A stretch of DNA of 21,560 nt from Promethearchaeota archaeon (GTDB taxonomy: Archaea; Asgardarchaeota; Lokiarchaeia; Sigyniarchaeales; SOKP01). Position numbers and translations under genes: made by a program. Below are positions 8,871-21,560 of the stretch, piece after piece; the stretch's first letter is position 1, and each line of letters begins with the position of its first letter. A model generated the notes under the pieces. That model was not told the origin of the DNA and did not search any database. It saw only the letters and a list, made by a program, of their open reading frames with translations. The DNA lies in contig JAHLWH010000135.1 of the NCBI GenBank assembly GCA_019058015.1, forward strand, positions 1 through 21,560, written 5' to 3'.

Positions 8871-10067
8871 TTAAAGAAAAGCGATGAAAAGAAACCACCA
8901 AACTAATAAGAACAAAATTAGAAGACAGAGAGTCTTTCTTATCATATGAACAATATGAGTTCGAGGTTTTCGCCCCTCTCGATCTAATAATTTTGGAAAA
9001 AGGCTATGATCGTGAGGTTCTTTTTGATACCAATAAGCGGTAGAGGACCAGTCATCACTACGGTGGTTATCATGCCCATGTTCTATAGTTACCTTAATTT
9101 CCTTGTTGAAATAGACGGGATCTTCTATATGATAACGATAATAAGAGATTTTACCCCACCAATTAAATCCTCCAGGCATAATTGTTCCATGATAGGGAGC
9201 GGATTGTTGCTCTCTGGGGCAGAAAGCTTGGTTTACATAATCCTCTGTTCCGGTTCCATATAGTGTTGGTTTTCCTTTTTTAATATCATCATCTATGAAG
9301 ATCATATCATCTCCTTCACCCGGCCAGTTTATAAAATTTGGCATAAACGTAATGTTATCAATATCTAGATGACAGCCACAATAATGCCCCTTTCCTTTAG
9401 CCTCAAGGATCATATAATTTTCTTTAAGTGGGTTTAGATTTTTTCCACCAAATACATTAAATTTGGTAGGGTTTAAACGTGAATACTTTTCTCCTGTTTC
9501 TCTATCTCTCCATGTCCCATCCGTTGGATTTTGCCGTCTCCATTGAGCATGAAATCGACCATATTCATCTTCATTTTCAAATCCGTTCTCATAAATTTCA
9601 TAATCTATGTAATAATATATTCGAAAAGTTTTAGGATTATCGTTTTCGAGAGTAATTCTAAACCCTTTTGAAAAAGGCATTGGCCACCAGCAATTAAACC
9701 CTTTTCCTCCTTGAGGTGACATTTGAAGTGGTAATGATACAAAATTCTTTTTTTTACCATGACCCAAACCAAAAAAATCACCAATTGGAACTTCTACACT
9801 GGGCTCATCATCTGGTTCTCCATCCCAATACATTCTTACTATTGCATTCCTAAGATAATATTTTACAAACAGACATGCGGTTGTACACCAAATATGCTTA
9901 ATACATCCCGCCCCTTGAAATTCAGCTATAGTATAGATTTCTCCAGGTTTTATATCTACCCAATCTTTATTACCACCAGTTCGATCATAACTAGATATTC
10001 GAGCTCTTTTAATTGAATCTGGTCGGAGTTTTGCAATATCATTTAAACTAGATTTTCCCAAATTCAT
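8871..10067 (-). CDS. DUF2961 / glycoside hydrolase family 172 protein with a C-terminal transmembrane helix
   Basis: SSYDRTGGN.D, G.GCI.HIW.T, YWDGE..PSVEVP.GDFFG, NCWWPMPF, catalytic-Glu motifs W.GEGD and GTGTEDY, YRYHI.DPV.F, IEHGH.N; hydrophobic C-terminus LCLLILFLLVWWFLFIAFL. Confidence 0.9.
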   Translation of the reverse strand: MNLGKSSLNDIAKLRPDSIKRARISSYDRTGGNKDWVDIKPGEIYTIAEFQGAGCIKHIWCTTACLFVKYYLRNAIVRMYWDGEPDDEPSVEVPIGDFFGLGHGKKKNFVSLPLQMSPQGGKGFNCWWPMPFSKGFRITLENDNPKTFRIYYYIDYEIYENGFENEDEYGRFHAQWRRQNPTDGTWRDRETGEKYSRLNPTKFNVFGGKNLNPLKENYMILEAKGKGHYCGCHLDIDNITFMPNFINWPGEGDDMIFIDDDIKKGKPTLYGTGTEDYVNQAFCPREQQSAPYHGTIMPGGFNWWGKISYYRYHIEDPVYFNKEIKVTIEHGHDNHRSDDWSSTAYWYQKEPHDHSLFPKLLDREGRKPRTHIVHMIRKTLCLLILFLLVWWFLFIAFL

Positions 10068-10193
10068 AATTATAAATCAACACTTAATTTTAAAAACATT
10101 TTTTACATTTAAATATTTAATCTCTTGGATTATTGAATATAATTATATATTTCTAAATGTTTAAATAATTTTAGAACATTATCCAATTCAATA

Positions 10194-13100
10194 ATGTCTA
10201 AAAAGCAAACAGTTATTTTGGTTTTTATTGGCATTTTGATACTATTAAATTCATTTCTATTAGCTACAGCTTTTATTCTATTCCCAGAAAACTGGGGTTT
10301 TACTCGCTATATAATTTTTATACATCCAGATGAAGAGGAGAATAATAATGGGTATTTCATAATTATTGATGAACTTATGCCTAAAACCCAATTATTTGAC
10401 ATCGATTGGGTTTTGCACGGGAGAGGTAATCTTACTGTTAGCGAAAATTTTCAAACTCTGAGTTATTCCACTCAAAGTTATATTTCAAATGATATAATCT
10501 CATTAAATGCTTCATTTTTAAGTCCTATTCAGAAACTCACTGATCATGAAGGAATGTTTTTTCCGATTCAAAATTATGAAGGAGAAGATAAGAACCAAAT
10601 ATATATTAAAGCTAAATATTCGGGTATGACTAACCCACTAATGGGAACTGTTTTATATCCTAATAATGAATCAGATTCATCTACTTCTGTTCCGTTTATA
10701 TCTACTGTAGATACTAATACTATTGGCCAAATTGGTTTATCTGATTTGATATACTATCAAGACCAAGGAATTACAAGAACTTTTTCCAATCCTAATGATA
10801 TAAAATCGGATGCTAAAATATTTTTCATTCATAAAAACGAACTTGATCTAATTAACTATTTTTTTGTCCAAGATTCTTCGAAATTGTCATTTGAAAATAA
10901 AAATTATTTTGAAAGCTCTGAACCTGTTATCAATCTTTTGATCAATTATGAGAATTGCCCAAATGAAATTACAGGTATTATCAATATTGATCTTCACCGC
11001 TCATTAATTGAAGAGGAATTGGAAGAACCCGAACAAATTTCAATTTATGTCCCTTTTGAGGTATCAAGCTTAATAATTGATGGAGTTAATACTTCATTTG
11101 TATCAGAAAGTTCATTAATAAAATTTGACCTTAAGGATAGTTGCTCCTTCATAATAAGTAAAGATACATTAAGCGAAGATGTAGAATACATAGAAAAAAA
11201 TCCTCTAAAAATCTCAGAAAGTTATGATTCTTTCCCAGATGATACGATATGGCAATTTAATTCTTCGAAAATAATTGAATTGGAACATTTAGATCATCCC
11301 TATCTTCTATTTAATGCAATAGAATTAGAGAGTCTAAAAGAAAAAATTTTTAATTCTAAAAACCCTTGGAATTCTTCATATTCTTTATACGCATCCGATG
11401 TAGAAACACTAGTCAATACTGATATAAATATATGGGATGAAGATCAAAGAATTGATCCTATAAGAAAACTATCTTTAAAGTTTGCAATTCAGGGTGGTCA
11501 AAATTATTTAAAAAAAATAAAAGAGATTTTATTAGATATGGGTAACATAGAAAACAATTATACAATGGATCTCAAGCGATCATATGCTGTTCAAGCATAT
11601 GCAATAGCTTATGATATTATCTATAAAAATATATCTGCATCTGAGAGAGTTCAAATTGAAGATCTTTTAGAAAATCATGCTCAACCATTATCTAATATGG
11701 ATTTATACCCAGAAAATAATCATTGTGTTGTTAATGCAGGTGGTTTGGGATTAGCGGGGCTAATCTTAAAAAATAATGAATTTATTGATATAGCAACAGA
11801 AGCCATTTTAACATATTTATATGAAAAAAATAGACCGGATGGTGGTTCTTATGAAGGTCAAAGTTATCTCGCATTTGCTTATCTTAACTCAATTGAATTT
11901 ATGTATGCTCTAAATAGATTAAATGCATATAATTTCTTTAATAATTCGCGATTTCAAAACAGCTTGGATTTTATGGCTCATTGCCTAAATCCACTTGCAA
12001 CAACTCCTCTATATGAAGATGCTACTACTTCAGGATATGCCAACGAAGTTTTATTGATTTCAGCATCTCAAATTTCTAATCTACATCGCGCTAAAGAATA
12101 TCAATGGCTATGGGAACATAGAAAAAACAATACTGACTTAGTGGGATTAAATGAATATAATTATTTATTAAGATCTTTTCCAAATTTTCGAAGTATAGTT
12201 TGTTATGATGTTAATGAGAAAATTGAACCAATAAAACCAGAGTATGCAAGTGATGTTTATAAAGATTCTAATATGGCTTTCTTGCGTTCAGGTTATTCAA
12301 CTGATTCCATTTTTTTATCATTTACATGTAAAAATTATATACAAAGTCATCCCCATTATGATGAAAACTCCTTTGAGTTGTGGGCCTATGGCGCATGGTT
12401 AGCAATAAATCCTGGATATCCTGGATGGGGTAATGAAGGTCATGATTATACAATTAGTACTGAGGCATCAAATACCCTAATAATAAATAATAAAGGACAA
12501 TTAAATAGAATGGCCAGTGGGTTTAAATCTGCTATTACTTCCCCATATTTTGATATGATTCAAGCAGATGCAACTCGTGCTTATAATTCCCCTGGTTCAA
12601 TGGCTGAATCAATTCAGGTTTATCTATTAATAATATTAATTTTTTCATTTCTTGGAATTAGTACTATTTTAATTTTAAATGCAAAAATTTCAATTCGAAA
12701 AAGACTTGAAAGAGGTGATGAGCATCCGGAGCTATTTGAATTACAAAATATCTCTATTATTAAAGATAGAGTTTTGAAATCTAATAAATACACTTTAGTA
12801 AATTTTCTTGAGGATATTTTCATGGCTCCAAAGGCTGTCCAAAAAAGAATTTTCTTCAGAGAACAAAAATCTAATCTCAGAATTTTAAATCTGATTATAA
12901 GTGGAGTGATTACTTTTTTTATGTTTTTATATCTTCTCTACATTGCAAGCAAAATTAATTTTCATTTACTTTATTATGAAGAGCAATATGATTTTTTCTT
13001 GAAATTTATTCCACTTGCAGAATTAATTCTTATTCCATTAATTTTAATTTTAACTTTTATTGCATACTATGCATTTATTAGACTTTTCGCTAAAATTTGT

Positions 13101-13571
13101 AATTATATATGCTCTAATTGTGATCCACAATTTCCAGACTATCGAAGACAACTTAAAAATACGATTTCAGTTAGTTTAGCTTGGCAATTATTAATCTTAG
13201 GAGTAGCATCAATTTATATTTGGTTTACTATTATGTGGGGTATTGGATTCTTTATCCATGATTTATTTCAGAGTATTGAAGGAATTAATGAAGTCGTCTA
13301 TCATCTATTTAAATTAATAAGTCAAGCAATATTGGTATTGGGAATAATAGTTGCATTTGAAATGTTATTTTTTACAATAACAGTACAATCGATAGGTTAT
13401 TCCATCTCAATAATGTCTGAGGCTAGAATTAAACAAAGAGATGGAGCAAAAATTACTATAGCAACTATTTTAATTATTCTATGCATAATTTTTATGATCA
13501 TTTTAATTATATTTTTATCATTTACTTATTTTACTTCAATATTAGGTATTGAAGAATTAACCGGAGGCTAA
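10194..13571 (+). CDS. Large membrane-anchored heparinase II/III-like (PL12/15/17-type fold) protein, apparently circularly permuted, with a C-terminal multi-pass membrane region
   Basis: HPYLLF...EL..LKEKI, NNH, DGG.YEG..Y, LRSG, HPHYD.NSF.L...G..L.I.PGY, SNT..IN...Q and DAT.AY motifs; FTRYI.F...YFII.DEL...DW.LH at the N-terminus; one N-terminal TM and about 6 C-terminal hydrophobic segments. Confidence 0.8.
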   Translation: MSKKQTVILVFIGILILLNSFLLATAFILFPENWGFTRYIIFIHPDEEENNNGYFIIIDELMPKTQLFDIDWVLHGRGNLTVSENFQTLSYSTQSYISNDIISLNASFLSPIQKLTDHEGMFFPIQNYEGEDKNQIYIKAKYSGMTNPLMGTVLYPNNESDSSTSVPFISTVDTNTIGQIGLSDLIYYQDQGITRTFSNPNDIKSDAKIFFIHKNELDLINYFFVQDSSKLSFENKNYFESSEPVINLLINYENCPNEITGIINIDLHRSLIEEELEEPEQISIYVPFEVSSLIIDGVNTSFVSESSLIKFDLKDSCSFIISKDTLSEDVEYIEKNPLKISESYDSFPDDTIWQFNSSKIIELEHLDHPYLLFNAIELESLKEKIFNSKNPWNSSYSLYASDVETLVNTDINIWDEDQRIDPIRKLSLKFAIQGGQNYLKKIKEILLDMGNIENNYTMDLKRSYAVQAYAIAYDIIYKNISASERVQIEDLLENHAQPLSNMDLYPENNHCVVNAGGLGLAGLILKNNEFIDIATEAILTYLYEKNRPDGGSYEGQSYLAFAYLNSIEFMYALNRLNAYNFFNNSRFQNSLDFMAHCLNPLATTPLYEDATTSGYANEVLLISASQISNLHRAKEYQWLWEHRKNNTDLVGLNEYNYLLRSFPNFRSIVCYDVNEKIEPIKPEYASDVYKDSNMAFLRSGYSTDSIFLSFTCKNYIQSHPHYDENSFELWAYGAWLAINPGYPGWGNEGHDYTISTEASNTLIINNKGQLNRMASGFKSAITSPYFDMIQADATRAYNSPGSMAESIQVYLLIILIFSFLGISTILILNAKISIRKRLERGDEHPELFELQNISIIKDRVLKSNKYTLVNFLEDIFMAPKAVQKRIFFREQKSNLRILNLIISGVITFFMFLYLLYIASKINFHLLYYEEQYDFFLKFIPLAELILIPLILILTFIAYYAFIRLFAKICNYICSNCDPQFPDYRRQLKNTISVSLAWQLLILGVASIYIWFTIMWGIGFFIHDLFQSIEGINEVVYHLFKLISQAILVLGIIVAFEMLFFTITVQSIGYSISIMSEARIKQRDGAKITIATILIILCIIFMIILIIFLSFTYFTSILGIEELTGG

Positions 13572-15667: not shown

Positions 15668-15790
15668 AATTCAAATTAAAAAAGTTAATATATTTTTTCT
15701 AAAAACACATAAAAGAATAAGGCTATGATGAGATTTAGATAAATAAGACATATTAATTTTGAATGATTGAATCTGAGGAAGTCTGAGCCA

Positions 15791-16342
15791 ATGTCTGAAA
15801 CTTTGAAAAATGATCTTTTTGAAAAAATGGGGAACAAAGTTCCCGGAGCTTTTACAACATTGGCAATGGGCTTTGGAATATACCTTTTAATTTCGATTAC
15901 TCTCTTAATTATTATTTTTTTATTGGTATTTATTGGAAATTTTTTTATTCTTGGATTAAATTTATTAACTTTTAAATTTACTGCAGTTCTTTTAATTTGT
16001 CTGATATTTTCTACTATACCAATCGGGGGGATTTACATTACATTAACTATTTTAATAAAAAATGTTCCAGAATTAATACTTGCTATGTCTATTGAAATAA
16101 ATATTTGGATTTGGATAATATATATTATCTGTTTCATTATTGGTATGGGAGTCTATTTATTCAATACAATCTCTCAATTTTATGTAATTTTTATTGTAGA
16201 TTATCCAACACCTCAATTAAAGAGAAAAAATCAAATATCTTCAATTTTAATATTAATTTCTTCAGCTATAATTGGAGTTATAATAGGAATCAATTTCGAT
16301 ATGATCTTTTTATCCATTGCCACATTTATATTTAACATATAA
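15791..16342 (+). CDS. Multi-pass (about 4-5 TM) hypothetical membrane protein
   Basis: Almost continuously hydrophobic, with short polar loops. ATG 15791 is preferred over TTG 15767. Confidence 0.75.
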   Translation: MSETLKNDLFEKMGNKVPGAFTTLAMGFGIYLLISITLLIIIFLLVFIGNFFILGLNLLTFKFTAVLLICLIFSTIPIGGIYITLTILIKNVPELILAMSIEINIWIWIIYIICFIIGMGVYLFNTISQFYVIFIVDYPTPQLKRKNQISSILILISSAIIGVIIGINFDMIFLSIATFIFNI

Positions 16343-16360
16343 AAAAAATTGGGGAATTAC

Positions 16361-17209
16361 ATGAACGTCTGGATTGTTGACAGTGAATCAGGAGTTACAA
16401 TTTTATATAAAGATTCCCTTGGATTAGAAATTGATGAGGATTTAGTATCAAGCCTTCTAACAGCATTAAATTTATTTTCTAAACACGAGCTTGATCAGTC
16501 TGGGATTGAATCTATTGATATGAGTGGCCTTAAATGGGTATATAGTCATGCTCCAGAATTTACTCTGTTATTTATTGCAGCAGATAAGAAAGAAACTCAT
16601 GCTGAAATTCTTAGATCTCGATTAATTGTAATTAAGAAAGATTTTCTTTCTCATTATGCTAAAACATCATCCGAATGGAAAGAAAAATGGAAAGGTTTAG
16701 TCAAACCATTTAAATCTTATGGAGATCAAATCGATGAGTTTATGGTTCAATGGAAAGAAACCGAAAAAATCGAATCTTATGGAATTTTATTTGACTCACT
16801 GGGAGTATTTCAGCAGATTTTGAATATTTGTGCTACTGTAATTGAGAAATATATCTCTGGATTTAGAAAAGAGCGTATTTATAGAAATATCGAGAATTTC
16901 TATTCTAGATTTATAGAAGCAATTCAATCAGATAAAGATAAGGAACTATCTAAGATCAAGTTTTCAAAAGAGCATGATTGGAATATTTTAAATATTAACG
17001 TGAGTATTGCAGATCCGCAAACAATACCAAGAGTATTTCTTGATATTGTGAAAATGATGAAAAATTTTATATTTTATGAACTCGGAAATGAGAAAGCTTT
17101 AGATGCCTTTAGCGAAGAGCTATATCCTTATCTCTTAAATAATTGGAATCAATTACAGCAATTAAACCTTGAAAAACCTTTATTCAGTATTTTCTTAAAC
17201 TATACTTAA
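16361..17209 (+). CDS. Asgard longin/roadblock-like N-terminal domain protein with a helical C-terminal region
   Basis: VWIVD..SG.TIL......ID.DLVS.LL.AL..FS..EL....IESI.M...K.VY......LLFI.A......I...L..I...F..Y follows the beta-beta-alpha-beta-beta-beta-alpha longin-like pattern. GGGGA lies upstream of ATG 16361; the alternative start is TTG 16349. Confidence 0.7.
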   Translation: MNVWIVDSESGVTILYKDSLGLEIDEDLVSSLLTALNLFSKHELDQSGIESIDMSGLKWVYSHAPEFTLLFIAADKKETHAEILRSRLIVIKKDFLSHYAKTSSEWKEKWKGLVKPFKSYGDQIDEFMVQWKETEKIESYGILFDSLGVFQQILNICATVIEKYISGFRKERIYRNIENFYSRFIEAIQSDKDKELSKIKFSKEHDWNILNINVSIADPQTIPRVFLDIVKMMKNFIFYELGNEKALDAFSEELYPYLLNNWNQLQQLNLEKPLFSIFLNYT

Positions 17210-17249: not shown

Positions 17250-19988
17250 CTATATCTTTTCTGTAAGATAACTATCAATCTCAGCTGCAGCTCTCTTTCC
17301 TGCTCCCATTGCTGAAATAACTGTCGCACTACCAGTCACAATATCTCCACCCGCATAAATACCTTCCAGATTTGTCTTTCCATGTTCACCGGTTTCAATA
17401 TACCCCCACTTATTAAGTTTTAACTCAGGGATTGAATTTGTAAGAATAGGATTTGCTTTTGTCCCAATTGCTATAATTATCGTATCTGTATCTATTTTAT
17501 ATTCTGAATCTTCAATTGGAATAGGGCGTCGTCGCCCAGAATCATCAGGTTCTCCTAATCTCATTTTAATAACCTCCATTTGCTTAACCTTTTCATTTTG
17601 ATCTCCAATAAAGCTCACTGGATTGGTTAAAAATTGAAATTCAATTCCTTCTTCAATCGCATGATGATATTCTGCTCTCCTTGCAGGCATTTCTTTTTCA
17701 GATCTCCTATACACAACAATTACTCTTTCAGCACCTAATCTCAATGCAACTCTTGCTGAATCCATAGCTACATTTCCCCCCCCGAGAACTGTTACAATTT
17801 TTCCTATTTTAATAGGTGTATCATATTCTGGAAATTTATAGGCTTTCATTAAATTTGCTCTTGTAAGAAATTCATTTGCCGTTAAAACGCCATTTAAACC
17901 TAAACCGTTTACTTTAATGAATGTAGGTAATCCTGCACCTACTCCAATAAAGAAAGCCTTGAACCCCATAGATTTTAAATCTTCTATAGTTAATATCTTT
18001 CCAACTATCTTATTATATTCAATTTTGCCTCCTAATGTTTTTAATGTTTCGATTTCTTCTCTAACTATTTCTTTTGGTAATCTAAATTCTGGTATACCAT
18101 AAACTAGCACACCTCCTCCCGTATGAAATGCTTCAAAAATTGTTACATCATATCCTCTCATTAAAAGCTCCCCGGCGCAAGTTAAACCTGCAGGACCTGC
18201 GCCAATGATTGCTACTTTAATATTTCTTGGAGCTTGACAATCAGGACATGCTTTAAGTTCATTTGCTCGGTCCCAATCAGCAATAAATCGTTCTAAGTTA
18301 CCAATTGCAATTGGTTTTGAAACAGAACCTAATAAACATGTTTGTTCGCATTGTATTTCTTGAGGACACACTCTCCCACATATTGCCGGTAATAAATTAT
18401 ATGTTTTTACATTATTGATGGCATCAGAAAATTTCTCTTGTCTTAAAAATCTTATAAATTTTGGAATATCAACATTAACGGGACAACCCTCAATACATAA
18501 AGGATTTCCGCATTGTAAACATCTTTGAGTCTCTAATTTTACCATCTCTGGGGTATATCCCTTTGGGACCTCCTGGAAGTTGTTTTTTCTTACATTTGGG
18601 TCTTGTTCAATTATTTTTTGTCTCGGAATTTCTTTATACATTTTTAATTTGGATTTAGCAATTTTACTTAAAGTTATAAAACTTTTACTGTCCTCTTCAA
18701 TTTTTTTCTGTTCGATTAATTTCAGATTAAAAGCTTGCTGAAATAAATCCACTCCTTTACTTGTTCTTGTAATAATTGTAGACCAACCCGGTTCAGATCC
18801 AATTGAGCCAACAGAAAGATCAGAAAGCTCAGAAGTTAAATCATCACATAAAAAACATCCAAATCGACCATATTTTTTTATCTTTTTTATCGGAATATCA
18901 AAGAAATCCTTATTTTTTTTATAAATAATAAACCGTCCTTTGTTGATATCCATTTTTTTAATTTCTTCAGGAATTATTAACCTTCTAGTAAGAAATTCAT
19001 TCTTTAAAATATCAAGTATCTTTTCATAATCAAATGATTCCATACAAAATAATCCTATTTTTAGCGCAATATTATTATAAAAGGGTTCATTAAGTGGATA
19101 AACCGAAACTTTTCTGAGAGCCTCCAAAACACAAGGAGTTCCTACAACTGCAATTTTCTTGAATTTTTTTGAATTTTGTAAAATTTTTAATGCGTGAGCA
19201 TTACTATATCTTGTCCCCGCACTTTTTAATAAATCTTCTTCATTTTCAATCAAAAGGGGTAATGGCTCATGTGGTTTTTCTGACACACCAACTACTAAAG
19301 CGGCATCAATTATTTTCTGTTTAAACGCGGTTTTTAGTAATGTTGTCACAATACCCCCATCTTGTGCAACTCCTTTAATGAGATTATCTTTTGTTTGTGC
19401 TGAATAGATTTCCCTATAGTTATTAAATTCTTTCAAGTATTTTATATCAGTATCGAGTTTTTCTTGATCTGACTTTAATTCTTTGGGAAAAAATGAGCGA
19501 TGGCAACAAGCGTAGCATAAACCACAATTGATGCATAAGTCATCATCAATAATTAAAGTGTCATTTAAGAAATTTATTGCATTAGTCGGACAAATCGAAA
19601 CACATAACCCACAACCACTACAAATTTTTTTATCCCTTATTATTGAAACATTTGGAAATAATCCTTCCTTCTCATTTTTTTCTTCGATACTTTGATAAAA
19701 TTCAGATATCTCTCCAATAAACTCCAATAATCCTAATTCCTTTAAATATTCGATATCATAAATTAATCTTTCTTCGGAAATTTTTAATTCTTCTTTTAAT
19801 TTTTGGATATCAATTCTTCCCAATTCCTTTATTCTTTTCAAAACTTTCTCTCTTTCATTTTCAGCTTGCATCAGAGAATTAATAAATTCTTCAAACTCAA
19901 CCTCATTATATTTCTTAGAATCGAGAATTTTCTGTTTATTATCGATTAAAACTTCAATTAAAGGTGATACTTTTTCCATTTTAACCAT
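17250..19988 (-). CDS. nfnB: Fusion protein: wHTH-like N-terminus + 2x[4Fe-4S] ferredoxin + FrhB-type F420/FAD domain + complete NfnB/SudA (NfnL) large subunit
   Basis: From aa 123: CSGCGLCVSICP and CINCGLCYACC. FrhB motifs AQDGG.VT.LL, AGTRY, VGTPC, IGLFCMESF, GC..C.D...ELSD.SVGSIGS..GWST.I.RT..G. From about aa 455, NfnB motifs R..NF.EV..GY, RCLQC..P.C..GCPV, CGRVCPQE.QCE..C, IG.LERF, GAGPAG, YGIPEFRLPK, GGGNVAMD, YRR and GGDIVTG.ATVI.AMGAG. Confidence 0.93.
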   Translation of the reverse strand: MVKMEKVSPLIEVLIDNKQKILDSKKYNEVEFEEFINSLMQAENEREKVLKRIKELGRIDIQKLKEELKISEERLIYDIEYLKELGLLEFIGEISEFYQSIEEKNEKEGLFPNVSIIRDKKICSGCGLCVSICPTNAINFLNDTLIIDDDLCINCGLCYACCHRSFFPKELKSDQEKLDTDIKYLKEFNNYREIYSAQTKDNLIKGVAQDGGIVTTLLKTAFKQKIIDAALVVGVSEKPHEPLPLLIENEEDLLKSAGTRYSNAHALKILQNSKKFKKIAVVGTPCVLEALRKVSVYPLNEPFYNNIALKIGLFCMESFDYEKILDILKNEFLTRRLIIPEEIKKMDINKGRFIIYKKNKDFFDIPIKKIKKYGRFGCFLCDDLTSELSDLSVGSIGSEPGWSTIITRTSKGVDLFQQAFNLKLIEQKKIEEDSKSFITLSKIAKSKLKMYKEIPRQKIIEQDPNVRKNNFQEVPKGYTPEMVKLETQRCLQCGNPLCIEGCPVNVDIPKFIRFLRQEKFSDAINNVKTYNLLPAICGRVCPQEIQCEQTCLLGSVSKPIAIGNLERFIADWDRANELKACPDCQAPRNIKVAIIGAGPAGLTCAGELLMRGYDVTIFEAFHTGGGVLVYGIPEFRLPKEIVREEIETLKTLGGKIEYNKIVGKILTIEDLKSMGFKAFFIGVGAGLPTFIKVNGLGLNGVLTANEFLTRANLMKAYKFPEYDTPIKIGKIVTVLGGGNVAMDSARVALRLGAERVIVVYRRSEKEMPARRAEYHHAIEEGIEFQFLTNPVSFIGDQNEKVKQMEVIKMRLGEPDDSGRRRPIPIEDSEYKIDTDTIIIAIGTKANPILTNSIPELKLNKWGYIETGEHGKTNLEGIYAGGDIVTGSATVISAMGAGKRAAAEIDSYLTEKI

Positions 19989-20865
19989 TCTCCTTAAAAA
20001 ATTTTTTTAATGCTTTACATTCACGATCATATAATTCTAGTGATTCTTTTTCTTGCTTTTCAAATCTTTTTGCACGCTTTAAAAGATTATCAAAATCTAC
20101 AATATGTCCATCAACATCAGGTCCATCAACACATGCAAATCCTATTTTTCCATCAATTGTTGGAAAACGACAACCGCCGCACATTCCAGTACCGTCAATC
20201 ATGATTGTATTTAAGGATACAATTGTTTTAACTTTAGGTAATCCATCAAAACCATTAGTTGTAAGAGCCACGTATTTCATCATAATTAATGGTCCTATGG
20301 CAATTACAATACTCAATTTTTCTCTTTTTAATAAATCCTTTAATGGTTCTGTTACAACACCTTTTATACCCTCTGACCCATCATCTGTACAAATAATTAA
20401 TTCATCACTTACAGATCCCATTTTATCTCTCCAAAATAACAACTCCTTATTTCTAGCGCCTAATATTGAAATAATTTTATTTCCTACTTCTTTTAATTCC
20501 TTTGCCTGCGGGTAACAAGGCGCTATTCCCACTCCACCTCCAATAATCACAACGGAATATTCATATTTTTTAATGTGAATTTTATTTCCTAAGGGACCAA
20601 CAACATCAAGAATCGAATCTCCAACATTTTGATGGAAAAGTAATTTTGTACTTTTTCCAGCAATTTGAACTACTGTTGTTATTGTTCCCTTTTCTCTATC
20701 ATAATCAGCTATTGTTAAAGGAATCCGTTCTCCTGTTTCATTAATTCGAACTAAAACAAAATTCCCAGCATAGGCTTTTTTGGCAATTAAGGGAGTTTCT
20801 AGCACCATTTCAAATACGATACCGCTCCCTCCCAATTCTCTTTTTTCTAAAATTTTATATGGCAT
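19981..20865 (-). CDS. nfnA: NfnA/SudB (NfnS) small subunit, FAD/NAD-binding with [2Fe-2S]
   Basis: GERIPLTIAD, GPLG, GGGVG.AP, TDDGS.G.KG.VT, GPL.MMK, IM.DGTGMCGGCR and FACVDGP..DGH.VDFD.L..R. Overlaps the downstream fusion gene by 8 bp. The start is more likely ATG 20865 than TTG 20901. Confidence 0.94.
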   Translation of the reverse strand: MPYKILEKRELGGSGIVFEMVLETPLIAKKAYAGNFVLVRINETGERIPLTIADYDREKGTITTVVQIAGKSTKLLFHQNVGDSILDVVGPLGNKIHIKKYEYSVVIIGGGVGIAPCYPQAKELKEVGNKIISILGARNKELLFWRDKMGSVSDELIICTDDGSEGIKGVVTEPLKDLLKREKLSIVIAIGPLIMMKYVALTTNGFDGLPKVKTIVSLNTIMIDGTGMCGGCRFPTIDGKIGFACVDGPDVDGHIVDFDNLLKRAKRFEKQEKESLELYDRECKALKKFFKENG

Positions 20866-21151
20866 TCTTATATACCAATTTCTATTTCTCTTAAGTTTCA
20901 ATAATATTAAATTAAATTTAACCTTTCTATTTTATTTTAAAAATTGAAATCCAATATTTAAAAAAAATGAAAAATTCAATTTTAACTTAAAAAAATAAAA
21001 ATTGTCAATTTTTTTTTATTTAACACTATAGAAAATATTTTTTTATATGATTTCTATAGCAATTCAAGAAATTTCAAGCACGTATATGCCTATTCAAAAT
21101 TAAATTTAGAAAAAGTATCAACAATAATTAGAGATAAAATTTAATATTATA

Positions 21152-21560
21152 TTAAATCCAACCTCTTAGTTTCATAGCATCGACAACTCTCTCAACGGAT
21201 ATCATGTAAGCACCCATTCTATTATTAGTCTCATTCAGATTGGCTCTTAATATGGTATCTTTATATGCTTTTGTCATTATTCTATTTAATAGATTATCAA
21301 CCTCTCGTGCAGTCCAACGATGTAAATAAAATCCCTGAATCATCTCAAAATAACTGACAGTTACCCCTCCTGCATTACATAGAAAATCTGGAATAACAAT
21401 AATATCCTTCTCAAATAATATCTCATCTGCAGCAGGAGTTGTTGGTCCATTTGCAAGTTCCACTATAATTTTTGCCTTAATATTCGTTGCATTTCTTTTT
21501 ATTATTGCATTTTCTAATGCTGCAGGAATCAGTATATCACAATTTAATTCAAATAAATCC
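21152..21560 (-). CDS. gdhA: Glutamate dehydrogenase (Glu/Leu/Phe/Val family), C-terminal part; begins beyond the window
   Basis: The frame is open to the window edge: ...[12 protein letters not shown]...[23 protein letters not shown]...[18 protein letters not shown]...AM.LRGW. Confidence 0.95.

Follow-up and report, generated by a model that had tools for sequence, protein, structure and literature searches.

What does an Nfn-type complex do when a module related to F420-reducing enzymes is built into its large subunit? This question is raised by contig JAHLWH010000135.1 of a Promethearchaeota archaeon (assembly GCA_019058015.1), of which we analysed a stretch of 21,560 nucleotides, referred to here as the window. 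Its minus strand carries nfnA and, overlapping it, a gene for a fusion protein of 912 amino acids (aa) in which a ferredoxin-type domain and an FrhB-type domain precede a complete NfnB. By the features which we tested, NfnA and the fusion protein belong to the NfnAB family and carry, in addition, an Fsr-N/FpoF-like module. With modest confidence, and judging from sequence, we read the pair as an Nfn-type complex whose low-potential branch would be wired to coenzyme F420, which probably takes or shares the place of ferredoxin via the fused module. The two genes and the predicted parts of the large subunit are as follows (FAD, flavin adenine dinucleotide; ORF, open reading frame; HTH, helix-turn-helix):

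19981..20865, minus strand: nfnA, the NfnS-type small subunit, with a FAD/NAD-binding fold and a [2Fe-2S] motif
17250..19988, minus strand: the fused large subunit of 912 aa, a single uninterrupted ORF with winged-helix-like, ferredoxin, FrhB and NfnB parts
19653..19988, minus strand: aa 1-112 of the large subunit, an all-helical N-terminal domain with an HTH/winged-helix-like core
19464..19652, minus strand: approximately aa 113-175, a ferredoxin-type domain (Fer4_9, Fer4_7) with two CxxCxxCxxxCP motifs, C123/126/129/133 and C152/155/158/162
18624..19430, minus strand: approximately aa 187-455, an FrhB-type flavin/F420 domain with [4Fe-4S] ligands C286, C315, C378 and C381
17250..18623, minus strand: aa 456-912, the NfnB (NfnL) part, with Fer4_20 and its two [4Fe-4S] clusters, a bifurcating-FAD domain and an NADPH domain

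A sequence-only reading of the window had described ferredoxin motifs, a full FrhB domain and a full NfnB in one uninterrupted 912-aa frame, overlapped by nfnA over 8 bp. All of this was borne out: the ORF runs without a break over 17250..19988 (-), the overlap with the upstream nfnA spans 19981-19988, and Pfam placed a 4Fe-4S (Fer4) dicluster at residues 116-165, FrhB_FdhB_N at 194-270 (E-value 8.7e-19), FrhB_FdhB_C at 277-432 (6.6e-40), Fer4_20 at 467-577 (1.6e-39) and Pyr_redox_2 at 591-897 (1.9e-33). The same reading was incomplete in that it overlooked the domain at aa 1-112 and a neighbouring glutamate dehydrogenase (GDH) gene. Residues 459-909 aligned end-to-end with residues 8-460 of Thermotoga maritima NfnB (4ylf_B, E-value 2.7e-165), and the NfnB half alone matched this chain at 2.4e-166 and the large subunit of Pyrococcus furiosus NfnI (5jca_L) at 1.1e-147. 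Foldseek gave 55% identity to 4ylf_B and 52% to 5jca_L, with a TM-score, normalised to the solved chain, of approximately 0.9 (0.91 for 4ylf_B), and the NfnB part scored 563.5 bits against the NCBIfam family TIGR01316 (cut-off 471.75). The added half matched 3zfs_C at 1.1e-49. Matches to 8riu_B and 8rja_E, the F420-reductase subunits of two enzymes of an ethane oxidiser, begin at residues 116-119 (E-values 2.5e-45 and 1.3e-44) and those to Fsr (7np8) at residue 117; the ferredoxin domain of the window protein aligns with the N-terminal ferredoxin domains of all three.

The small subunit is equally typical. Its ORF is open to a TTG at 20901 (19981..20901, minus strand), and the ATG at 20865 is the likely start since the NfnA proteins of relatives (approximately 294 aa) begin at the residue equivalent to its MPYKIL. 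Pfam found DHODB_Fe-S_bind at residues 231-268, NCBIfam NF004862 scored 366 bits (cut-off 220) and the structure chain 5jca_S was matched at 7.8e-85. All cofactor motifs of NfnA are intact, including DGTGMCGGC, and the other Nfn motifs which had been picked out from the sequence, IGNLERF (with E566 and R567), YGIPEFRLPK (630-639) and YRR (760-762), are present in the fusion protein and invariant in an alignment of 87 full-length fused proteins, with partial sequences and P0002, a deletion variant of 855 aa, excluded. Also invariant in this alignment are the eight ferredoxin cysteines, FrhB residues C286, C315, C378 and C381, and C490/493/498/502, C541/547/551 and E566-R567 of NfnB. An AlphaFold2 model of the whole chain had a mean predicted local distance difference test (pLDDT) value of 84.2 and a predicted TM-score (pTM) of 0.82, the latter suggesting that the modelled modules are placed in a defined mutual arrangement. 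A Foldseek search with the whole model returned NfnB-type chains only and is uninformative on domain packing. A complex prediction of the ferredoxin and FrhB module (113-455) against the NfnB part (456-912), both entered as alignments, scored 0.00; this gives no verdict and was counted neither for nor against contact.

We mapped the FrhB module onto Methanothermobacter marburgensis FrhB by alignment and by the description of its sites by Mills et al. 2013 (PMC3591093). Cys104, Cys134, Cys192 and Cys195, the ligands of the [4Fe-4S] cluster in the M. marburgensis protein, correspond to C286, C315, C378 and C381, and the cluster 1 motif of Fsr, PC..C..CxxC (PMC10229431), is present as P285-C286..C315..C378xxC381. 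The FAD and F420 sites show conservative substitutions relative to M. marburgensis FrhB, not identities: the buried GIVTG helix, with its N-terminus at the FAD pyrophosphate, reads GIVTT; K75-Y76, in a conserved loop close to FAD, is R260-Y261; the IGKGK turn at the F420 site reads INKGR; and S209-V210, in a loop beside the F420 ring, is S395-I396 (site descriptions from PMC3591093).

The fusion is found well beyond this contig. In a collection of 5.8 billion proteins, the query is covered to 94-100% by 90 clusters (P0001-P0090) with identities of 59-96%, and all of them have FrhB and NfnB Pfam domains; the named sources are Lokiarchaeota or Promethearchaeota proteins called 'NADPH-dependent glutamate synthase', a name which goes back to the TIGR01316 match. 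We also sampled 301 Asgard genomes, 69 from the window's own Lokiarchaeial family and 232 from other families. A full or near-full fusion was found in 36 of the 69 (counting one deletion variant, one copy truncated by a contig end and one divided between the ends of two contigs), and the search for the same domain architecture beside nfnA, which the sequence-only reading had proposed, gave a positive answer, with an nfnA-type gene at 38/38 fused loci. None of the 232 genomes of other families contained the fusion; NfnB is unfused there, at 55-63% identity. The junction, for which read evidence had been proposed as a check, is bridged by contigs of two runs from studies other than the likely source: a 3101-nucleotide contig of run X5 spans 17335-20435 at approximately 98% identity, including the nfnA overlap, and a 787-nucleotide contig of run X10 spans 18181-18967. 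An assembly chimera is rejected by the 90 clusters, the 36 family genomes and these two contigs. A single 571-nucleotide contig from RNA library X20 lies on 18051-18621 at approximately 95% identity; it was not counted as expression because it comes from a relative and may stem from DNA carry-over.

Among 1.84 billion representatives at 50% identity, P0085 alone covers the full length, joined by two N-terminal fragments. We scanned 19 multi-domain matches among these representatives with Pfam. Two metagenome proteins, each at 38% identity, combine the same parts in other orders: in P0180 (821 aa) FrhB_N and FrhB_C flank a GltD/NfnB-like flavoprotein, and in P0240 (855 aa, from a 13-member cluster) such a flavoprotein precedes the FrhB domains. 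A search of 151 sampled Asgard genomes yielded no protein of the P0240 type. Several other scanned matches carry polyferredoxin, NfnA-like, CCG, MvhD or molybdopterin modules. The sequence-only reading knew of no characterised enzyme of this architecture, and a full-text literature search likewise found no description of an FrhB-NfnB fusion, with subscription journals and supplements (including the frhB surveys of PMC9012536 and PMC11493965) outside its scope. In the text available, the preprint of Imachi (10.1101/726976) lists only NfnAB and an Asgard survey lists only 'nfn'.

How might such a protein work? We propose that NfnA and the fusion protein would form an Nfn-type flavin-based bifurcating/confurcating complex. 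By homology, NADPH would react at the FAD of NfnB, from which one branch would lead over the [2Fe-2S] cluster and FAD of NfnA to NAD+ and the other through the two [4Fe-4S] clusters of NfnB. The second branch may then run on into the fused 2x[4Fe-4S] ferredoxin domain, in place of free ferredoxin, and from there over the FrhB [4Fe-4S] cluster to the FrhB FAD, which would exchange a hydride with F420. The net reaction would be 2 NADPH + NAD+ + F420 <-> 2 NADP+ + NADH + F420H2, and the complex would link NADPH from the neighbouring GDH to the F420 pool. The presumed docking place of ferredoxin on T. maritima NfnAB is close to the distal cluster of NfnB (PMC5861303), and the position of the fused module suggests that it occupies this end of the complex. 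A precedent comes from an ethane oxidiser, in which an F420-reductase subunit replaces ferredoxin or polyferredoxin on carbon monoxide dehydrogenase (CODH) and on Fwd (PMC11493965). Whether the window would then hold the first flavin-based bifurcating enzyme with F420, not ferredoxin, as its low-potential acceptor is a more tentative matter, and on the sequence evidence we regard this as possible but doubtful.

The neighbourhood supplies two further genes of relevance (H4MPT, tetrahydromethanopterin):

21152..21559, minus strand: C-terminal 135 aa of glutamate dehydrogenase (GDH), ELFV_dehydrog 3.2e-44 (Pfam), the gene being cut by the contig end
14377..15237, plus strand: mtd, F420-dependent methylene-H4MPT dehydrogenase, PF01993 2.2e-107, NF002162 350.4 bits (cut-off 297)

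On the minus strand the order is gdh (cut by the contig end), nfnA and the fusion gene. A GDH gene flanks no fewer than 10 of the 38 loci with the fusion and, in relatives, no fewer than 9 nfnAB loci without it; these counts are lower bounds, approximately 1.5 kb of flank having been examined per locus. The mtd gene lies 2 kb from the fusion gene on the opposite strand and is context, outside the operon. A glutamate synthase (GOGAT) small subunit was rejected as an identity for the fusion protein: its gene is accompanied by nfnA, GDH and two genes that matched no Pfam family, with no GltB-type gene among them. These two genes, at 16349-17209 (+) and 15767-16342 (+), lie between mtd and the fusion gene, and one of them is predicted to encode a multi-pass hydrophobic protein. 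Homologues of the 286-aa intervening protein (40-42% identity) also occur near unfused nfnAB-gdh clusters (loci L028, L029 and L032). Elsewhere in the window, at 8871-13571, a DUF2961 protein (398 aa) adjoins a 1125-aa protein with a heparinase II/III-like domain, which hints at polysaccharide use, and an Nre-type gene is found at 862-2196.

Several observations, on the module itself, on the host and on the history of the fusion, weigh against F420 as the acceptor. The FrhB part scored under the NCBIfam equivalog cut-offs for FrhB (NF006807 253.1 against 269; TIGR03289 221.8 against 331.5) and for FpoF (NF040616 152.3 against 475), so it is taken as a separate subfamily and not as an FrhB or FpoF orthologue. 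Some relatives of FrhB, the chlorophyll-pathway reductases, do not use F420. The module could act on another substrate or acceptor, or be a structural relic on an ordinary ferredoxin-dependent Nfn, a reading which would also fit the repeated loss and decay of the module in relatives described below. It should be noted that the source genome (G000), with its single nfnA and single close NfnB, holds ten further FrhB paralogues whose partners are unassigned, again in keeping with a module which does not use F420. We hold this alternative to be very improbable: the iron-sulfur ligands and the FAD/F420-site motifs are conserved both in the window copy and in the 87 aligned proteins, the FrhB part is 93-96% identical within the genus, as is the NfnB part, and genes for F420 biosynthesis and the F420-dependent Mtd are present.

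As regards the host, CofD (315.9 bits) and CofE (268.7 bits) were above their cut-offs in the source genome, as was Mtd in the window. Neither CofG nor CofH was detected in this assembly (94.4% complete), which again would favour a module without F420, and both were likewise missing from assembly G177. CofH scored 453 bits in both complete same-genus genomes and was above its cut-off in 4/5 relatives, including two members of the family; the absence from the source assembly is therefore probably an assembly gap. FrhA and Mer were below their cut-offs in this genome, and Fno was above its cut-off in 0/69 genomes of the family. With Mtd present, and Fno and an F420-reducing hydrogenase not found, the complex would be the NADPH-F420 link of the host. 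The absence of Fno is no fusion-specific correlate, and was rejected as such, because the whole family lacks it and so do families with unfused Nfn (f9, 0/76; f7, 0/28).

The standard potential (E0') of F420, at approximately -340 mV, is close to that of NAD(P)H. F420 would therefore be an energetically odd low-potential acceptor, with most of the energy of bifurcation wasted. The similar potentials of F420 and NADP, together with the lack of Fno in the family, would suit a non-bifurcating F420H2:NADP+ oxidoreductase which merely equilibrates F420 with NADP(H) as a stand-in for Fno, the role of NfnA being minor or regulatory. P. furiosus NfnII/Xfn (5vj7), one of our structure matches, has indeed been reported as non-bifurcating (PMC5861303). 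This explanation nevertheless seems to us quite improbable, since nfnA is strictly retained and translationally coupled with its cofactor motifs intact, and since the NfnB half is closer to the bifurcating T. maritima NfnAB and NfnI (2.4e-166 and 1.1e-147, as above) than to Xfn (2.8e-137). In addition, reduction of a bifurcating FAD through a single branch is difficult, its semiquinone being unstable (PMC5861303).

The history of the fusion is not that of a single, stable acquisition. A quick IQ-TREE phylogeny of the NfnB domain was built from 38 rows with the fusion and 30 without it; five sequences from other families served as the root. The proteins with the fusion did not form one clade; at least six changes are needed, three of them forced by starred branches, and constraining the fused rows together cost 139 log-likelihood units (approximately unbiased (AU) test, p = 0.000136, run after the tree had been seen). 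Five unfused NfnBs nest with three fused ones in a clade of 100% support, and three of the five (L106-L108) retain, as an N-terminal vestige, approximately 30 residues which correspond by homology to the final helix of the FrhB module. The nesting and the vestigial residues indicate that the module was deleted secondarily at least twice, and on the strength of the tree, the AU test and the vestiges we reject a history with one gain and no loss. In a genome of the same genus (G040, L161:1451-4036) an in-frame deletion has removed 55 residues of FrhB, equivalent to aa 317-371 of the window protein, so that the INKGR turn is gone, and substitutions have changed the GG pair that is otherwise invariant in the FAD helix; the NfnB half of this protein is 93% identical. 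This 855-aa form is cluster P0002, with 7 member sequences. The FrhB module is dispensable in evolution and has been lost secondarily in relatives.

The lineages without the module keep nfnAB and the same neighbours, from which it follows that the Nfn core works without it. This would also be expected of a four-way hub, that is, a still ferredoxin-dependent Nfn in which free ferredoxin docks at the exposed fused clusters and FrhB is an optional second port, so that low-potential electrons pass to or from either ferredoxin or F420. The core is canonical, with high conservation, and polyferredoxin extensions are found at the N-terminus of other NfnBs (P0140, P0170, P0248 and P0135). The complex is also the only Nfn of its genome, and the general Asgard literature leads one to expect that an organism which ferments amino acids with ferredoxin still needs exchange between ferredoxin and NADP. 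We consider such a hub unlikely, as the solved F420-reductase fusions use their ferredoxin domain as an internal relay and not as a port (PMC10229431, PMC11493965).

The fused loci vary to some extent in composition. An nfnA of approximately 290 aa lies directly upstream in 36/38 of them; in the other two (L153 and L155) the upstream gene is a fusion of a molybdopterin oxidoreductase with an NfnA-like part. Genes of this type, in which the NfnA-like C-terminal part is 40-46% identical to NfnA, also occur at unfused loci (L123-L127 and L130), and they point to a formate-dehydrogenase-like Nfn variant which in two cases is combined with the FrhB fusion. At L014 / L020:5121-11493 one nfnA is followed in tandem by a fused gene and a second fused paralogue, and four other genomes (G273, G138, G077 and G213) hold two fused copies at separate loci.

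The domain at aa 1-112 was assigned to no Pfam family and had only sub-threshold matches in NCBIfam. Modelled alone it is helical (pLDDT 87.9), with no strand assigned by DSSP. VIA-align placed residues 42-92 on Lrp/AsnC-type HTH domains with a middling Z of 7.0 and a root-mean-square deviation of 1.6 Å over 50 residues; Foldseek returned nothing at E <= 0.001 (best E 1.2). By alignment, the domain also heads three stand-alone ferredoxin-FrhB paralogues of the same genome, and because these adjoin Hdr-like genes a docking role fits better than DNA binding. We therefore consider it more likely to be a docking or oligomerisation piece than a DNA binder. The ten further FrhB paralogues of the source genome, among them the three with this domain, lie on contigs C125, C237, C216, C209, C136, C10 and C68, and several adjoin HdrA-like, HdrD/CCG-like or polyferredoxin genes.

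The same genome contains other fusions of related parts. A 467-aa ORF at a contig end (C68:21283-22686 (-) = L100:3456-4859) joins FrhB_FdhB_C (47-199) to a PyrK/NfnA-type [2Fe-2S] region (421-456) and could likewise connect F420 with NAD(P). A further two proteins, one of 921 aa (L002:967-3732 (+), on C98) and one of 927 aa (L003:478-3261 (-), on C125), carry an NfnB/GltD-like flavoprotein (45% identical) between HdrC-like iron-sulfur motifs and an HdrB-like CCG region; one of them adjoins a stand-alone winged-helix-ferredoxin-FrhB paralogue.

In the more tentative case that F420, and not ferredoxin, is the low-potential acceptor of bifurcation, the exergonic transfer from NADPH to NAD+ would enable the cell to bring its F420 pool to a potential below that of NADPH. 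The F420-dependent steps of the H4MPT branch of the Wood-Ljungdahl pathway could then be fed from amino-acid oxidation by way of the neighbouring GDH, which would explain how F420 is reduced in these Asgard archaea without Frh or Fno. Lokiarchaeia are cultivable relatives of the eukaryotic host lineage, and a complex wired to F420 would offer a testable answer to how they connect their NAD(P)H, ferredoxin and F420 pools. To our knowledge, all characterised Nfn members use ferredoxin or flavodoxin as their low-potential partner. A natural Nfn wired to F420 would widen the chemistry of bifurcation, for which only four families of flavin-based enzymes are known, Nfn among them (PMC5861303). Natural controls exist in close relatives without the module and in a sister species with a damaged one. 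Should one of the alternatives be right, the locus would still be a clear example of modular FrhB recruitment, of modest interest.

Set beside known systems, the window complex shares with NfnAB of T. maritima and P. furiosus NfnI the two adjacent genes, a small subunit with FAD, an NAD site and a [2Fe-2S] cluster, and a large subunit with two [4Fe-4S] clusters, FAD and an NADPH site, the Glu, Arg and YRR motifs being kept. It differs in the 455 extra N-terminal residues (winged-helix-like, ferredoxin and FrhB), with which it is predicted to gain three [4Fe-4S] clusters, a third FAD and an F420-type site at the presumed ferredoxin-docking end (PMC5861303). In the putative methanogen FGltS, a unit of the FrhB/Fsr-N type has been proposed as the F420H2 input of an enzyme related to glutamate synthase; its partner, however, is a 'glutamate synthase subunit' (glutamine + 2-oxoglutarate -> glutamate) and not NfnB/NfnA (PMC3448663), and no catalytic subunit of the FGltS type adjoins the window gene. 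The HdrA-NfnB insertions (HdrA9-11) of ANME-1, and NfnABC/StnABC (9BOV, 9N5U, 8OH5), likewise hold an NfnB-type module inside larger redox assemblies (PMC9012536), but these lack an FrhB domain and their partners are HdrA or subunits of the molybdopterin or NuoF type.

The closest parallels to the added half are found in other enzymes. In CODH zeta and Fwd FwdI of Ca. Ethanoperedens thermophilum (8RIU_B and 8RJA_E), ferredoxin and FrhB parts divert electrons which are normally coupled to ferredoxin to F420 (PMC11493965); these are separate subunits, whereas the window module is fused to a bifurcating-type flavoprotein and has the extra N-terminal domain. Fsr (7NP8/7NPA) has the same order of modules, an N-terminal 2x[4Fe-4S] ferredoxin followed by an FrhB-type F420H2 oxidase (FAD, PC..C..CxxC) and a catalytic module (PMC10229431), and is similar to the window protein over residues 117-432 (E-value approximately 1e-40). 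Electrons in Fsr leave FAD for cluster 1, pass the two ferredoxin clusters at the N-terminus and so reach the next module (PMC10229431), by a relay which crosses to the other protomer. Where Fsr ends in a sirohaem sulfite reductase, the window protein has NfnB, together with the second subunit NfnA.

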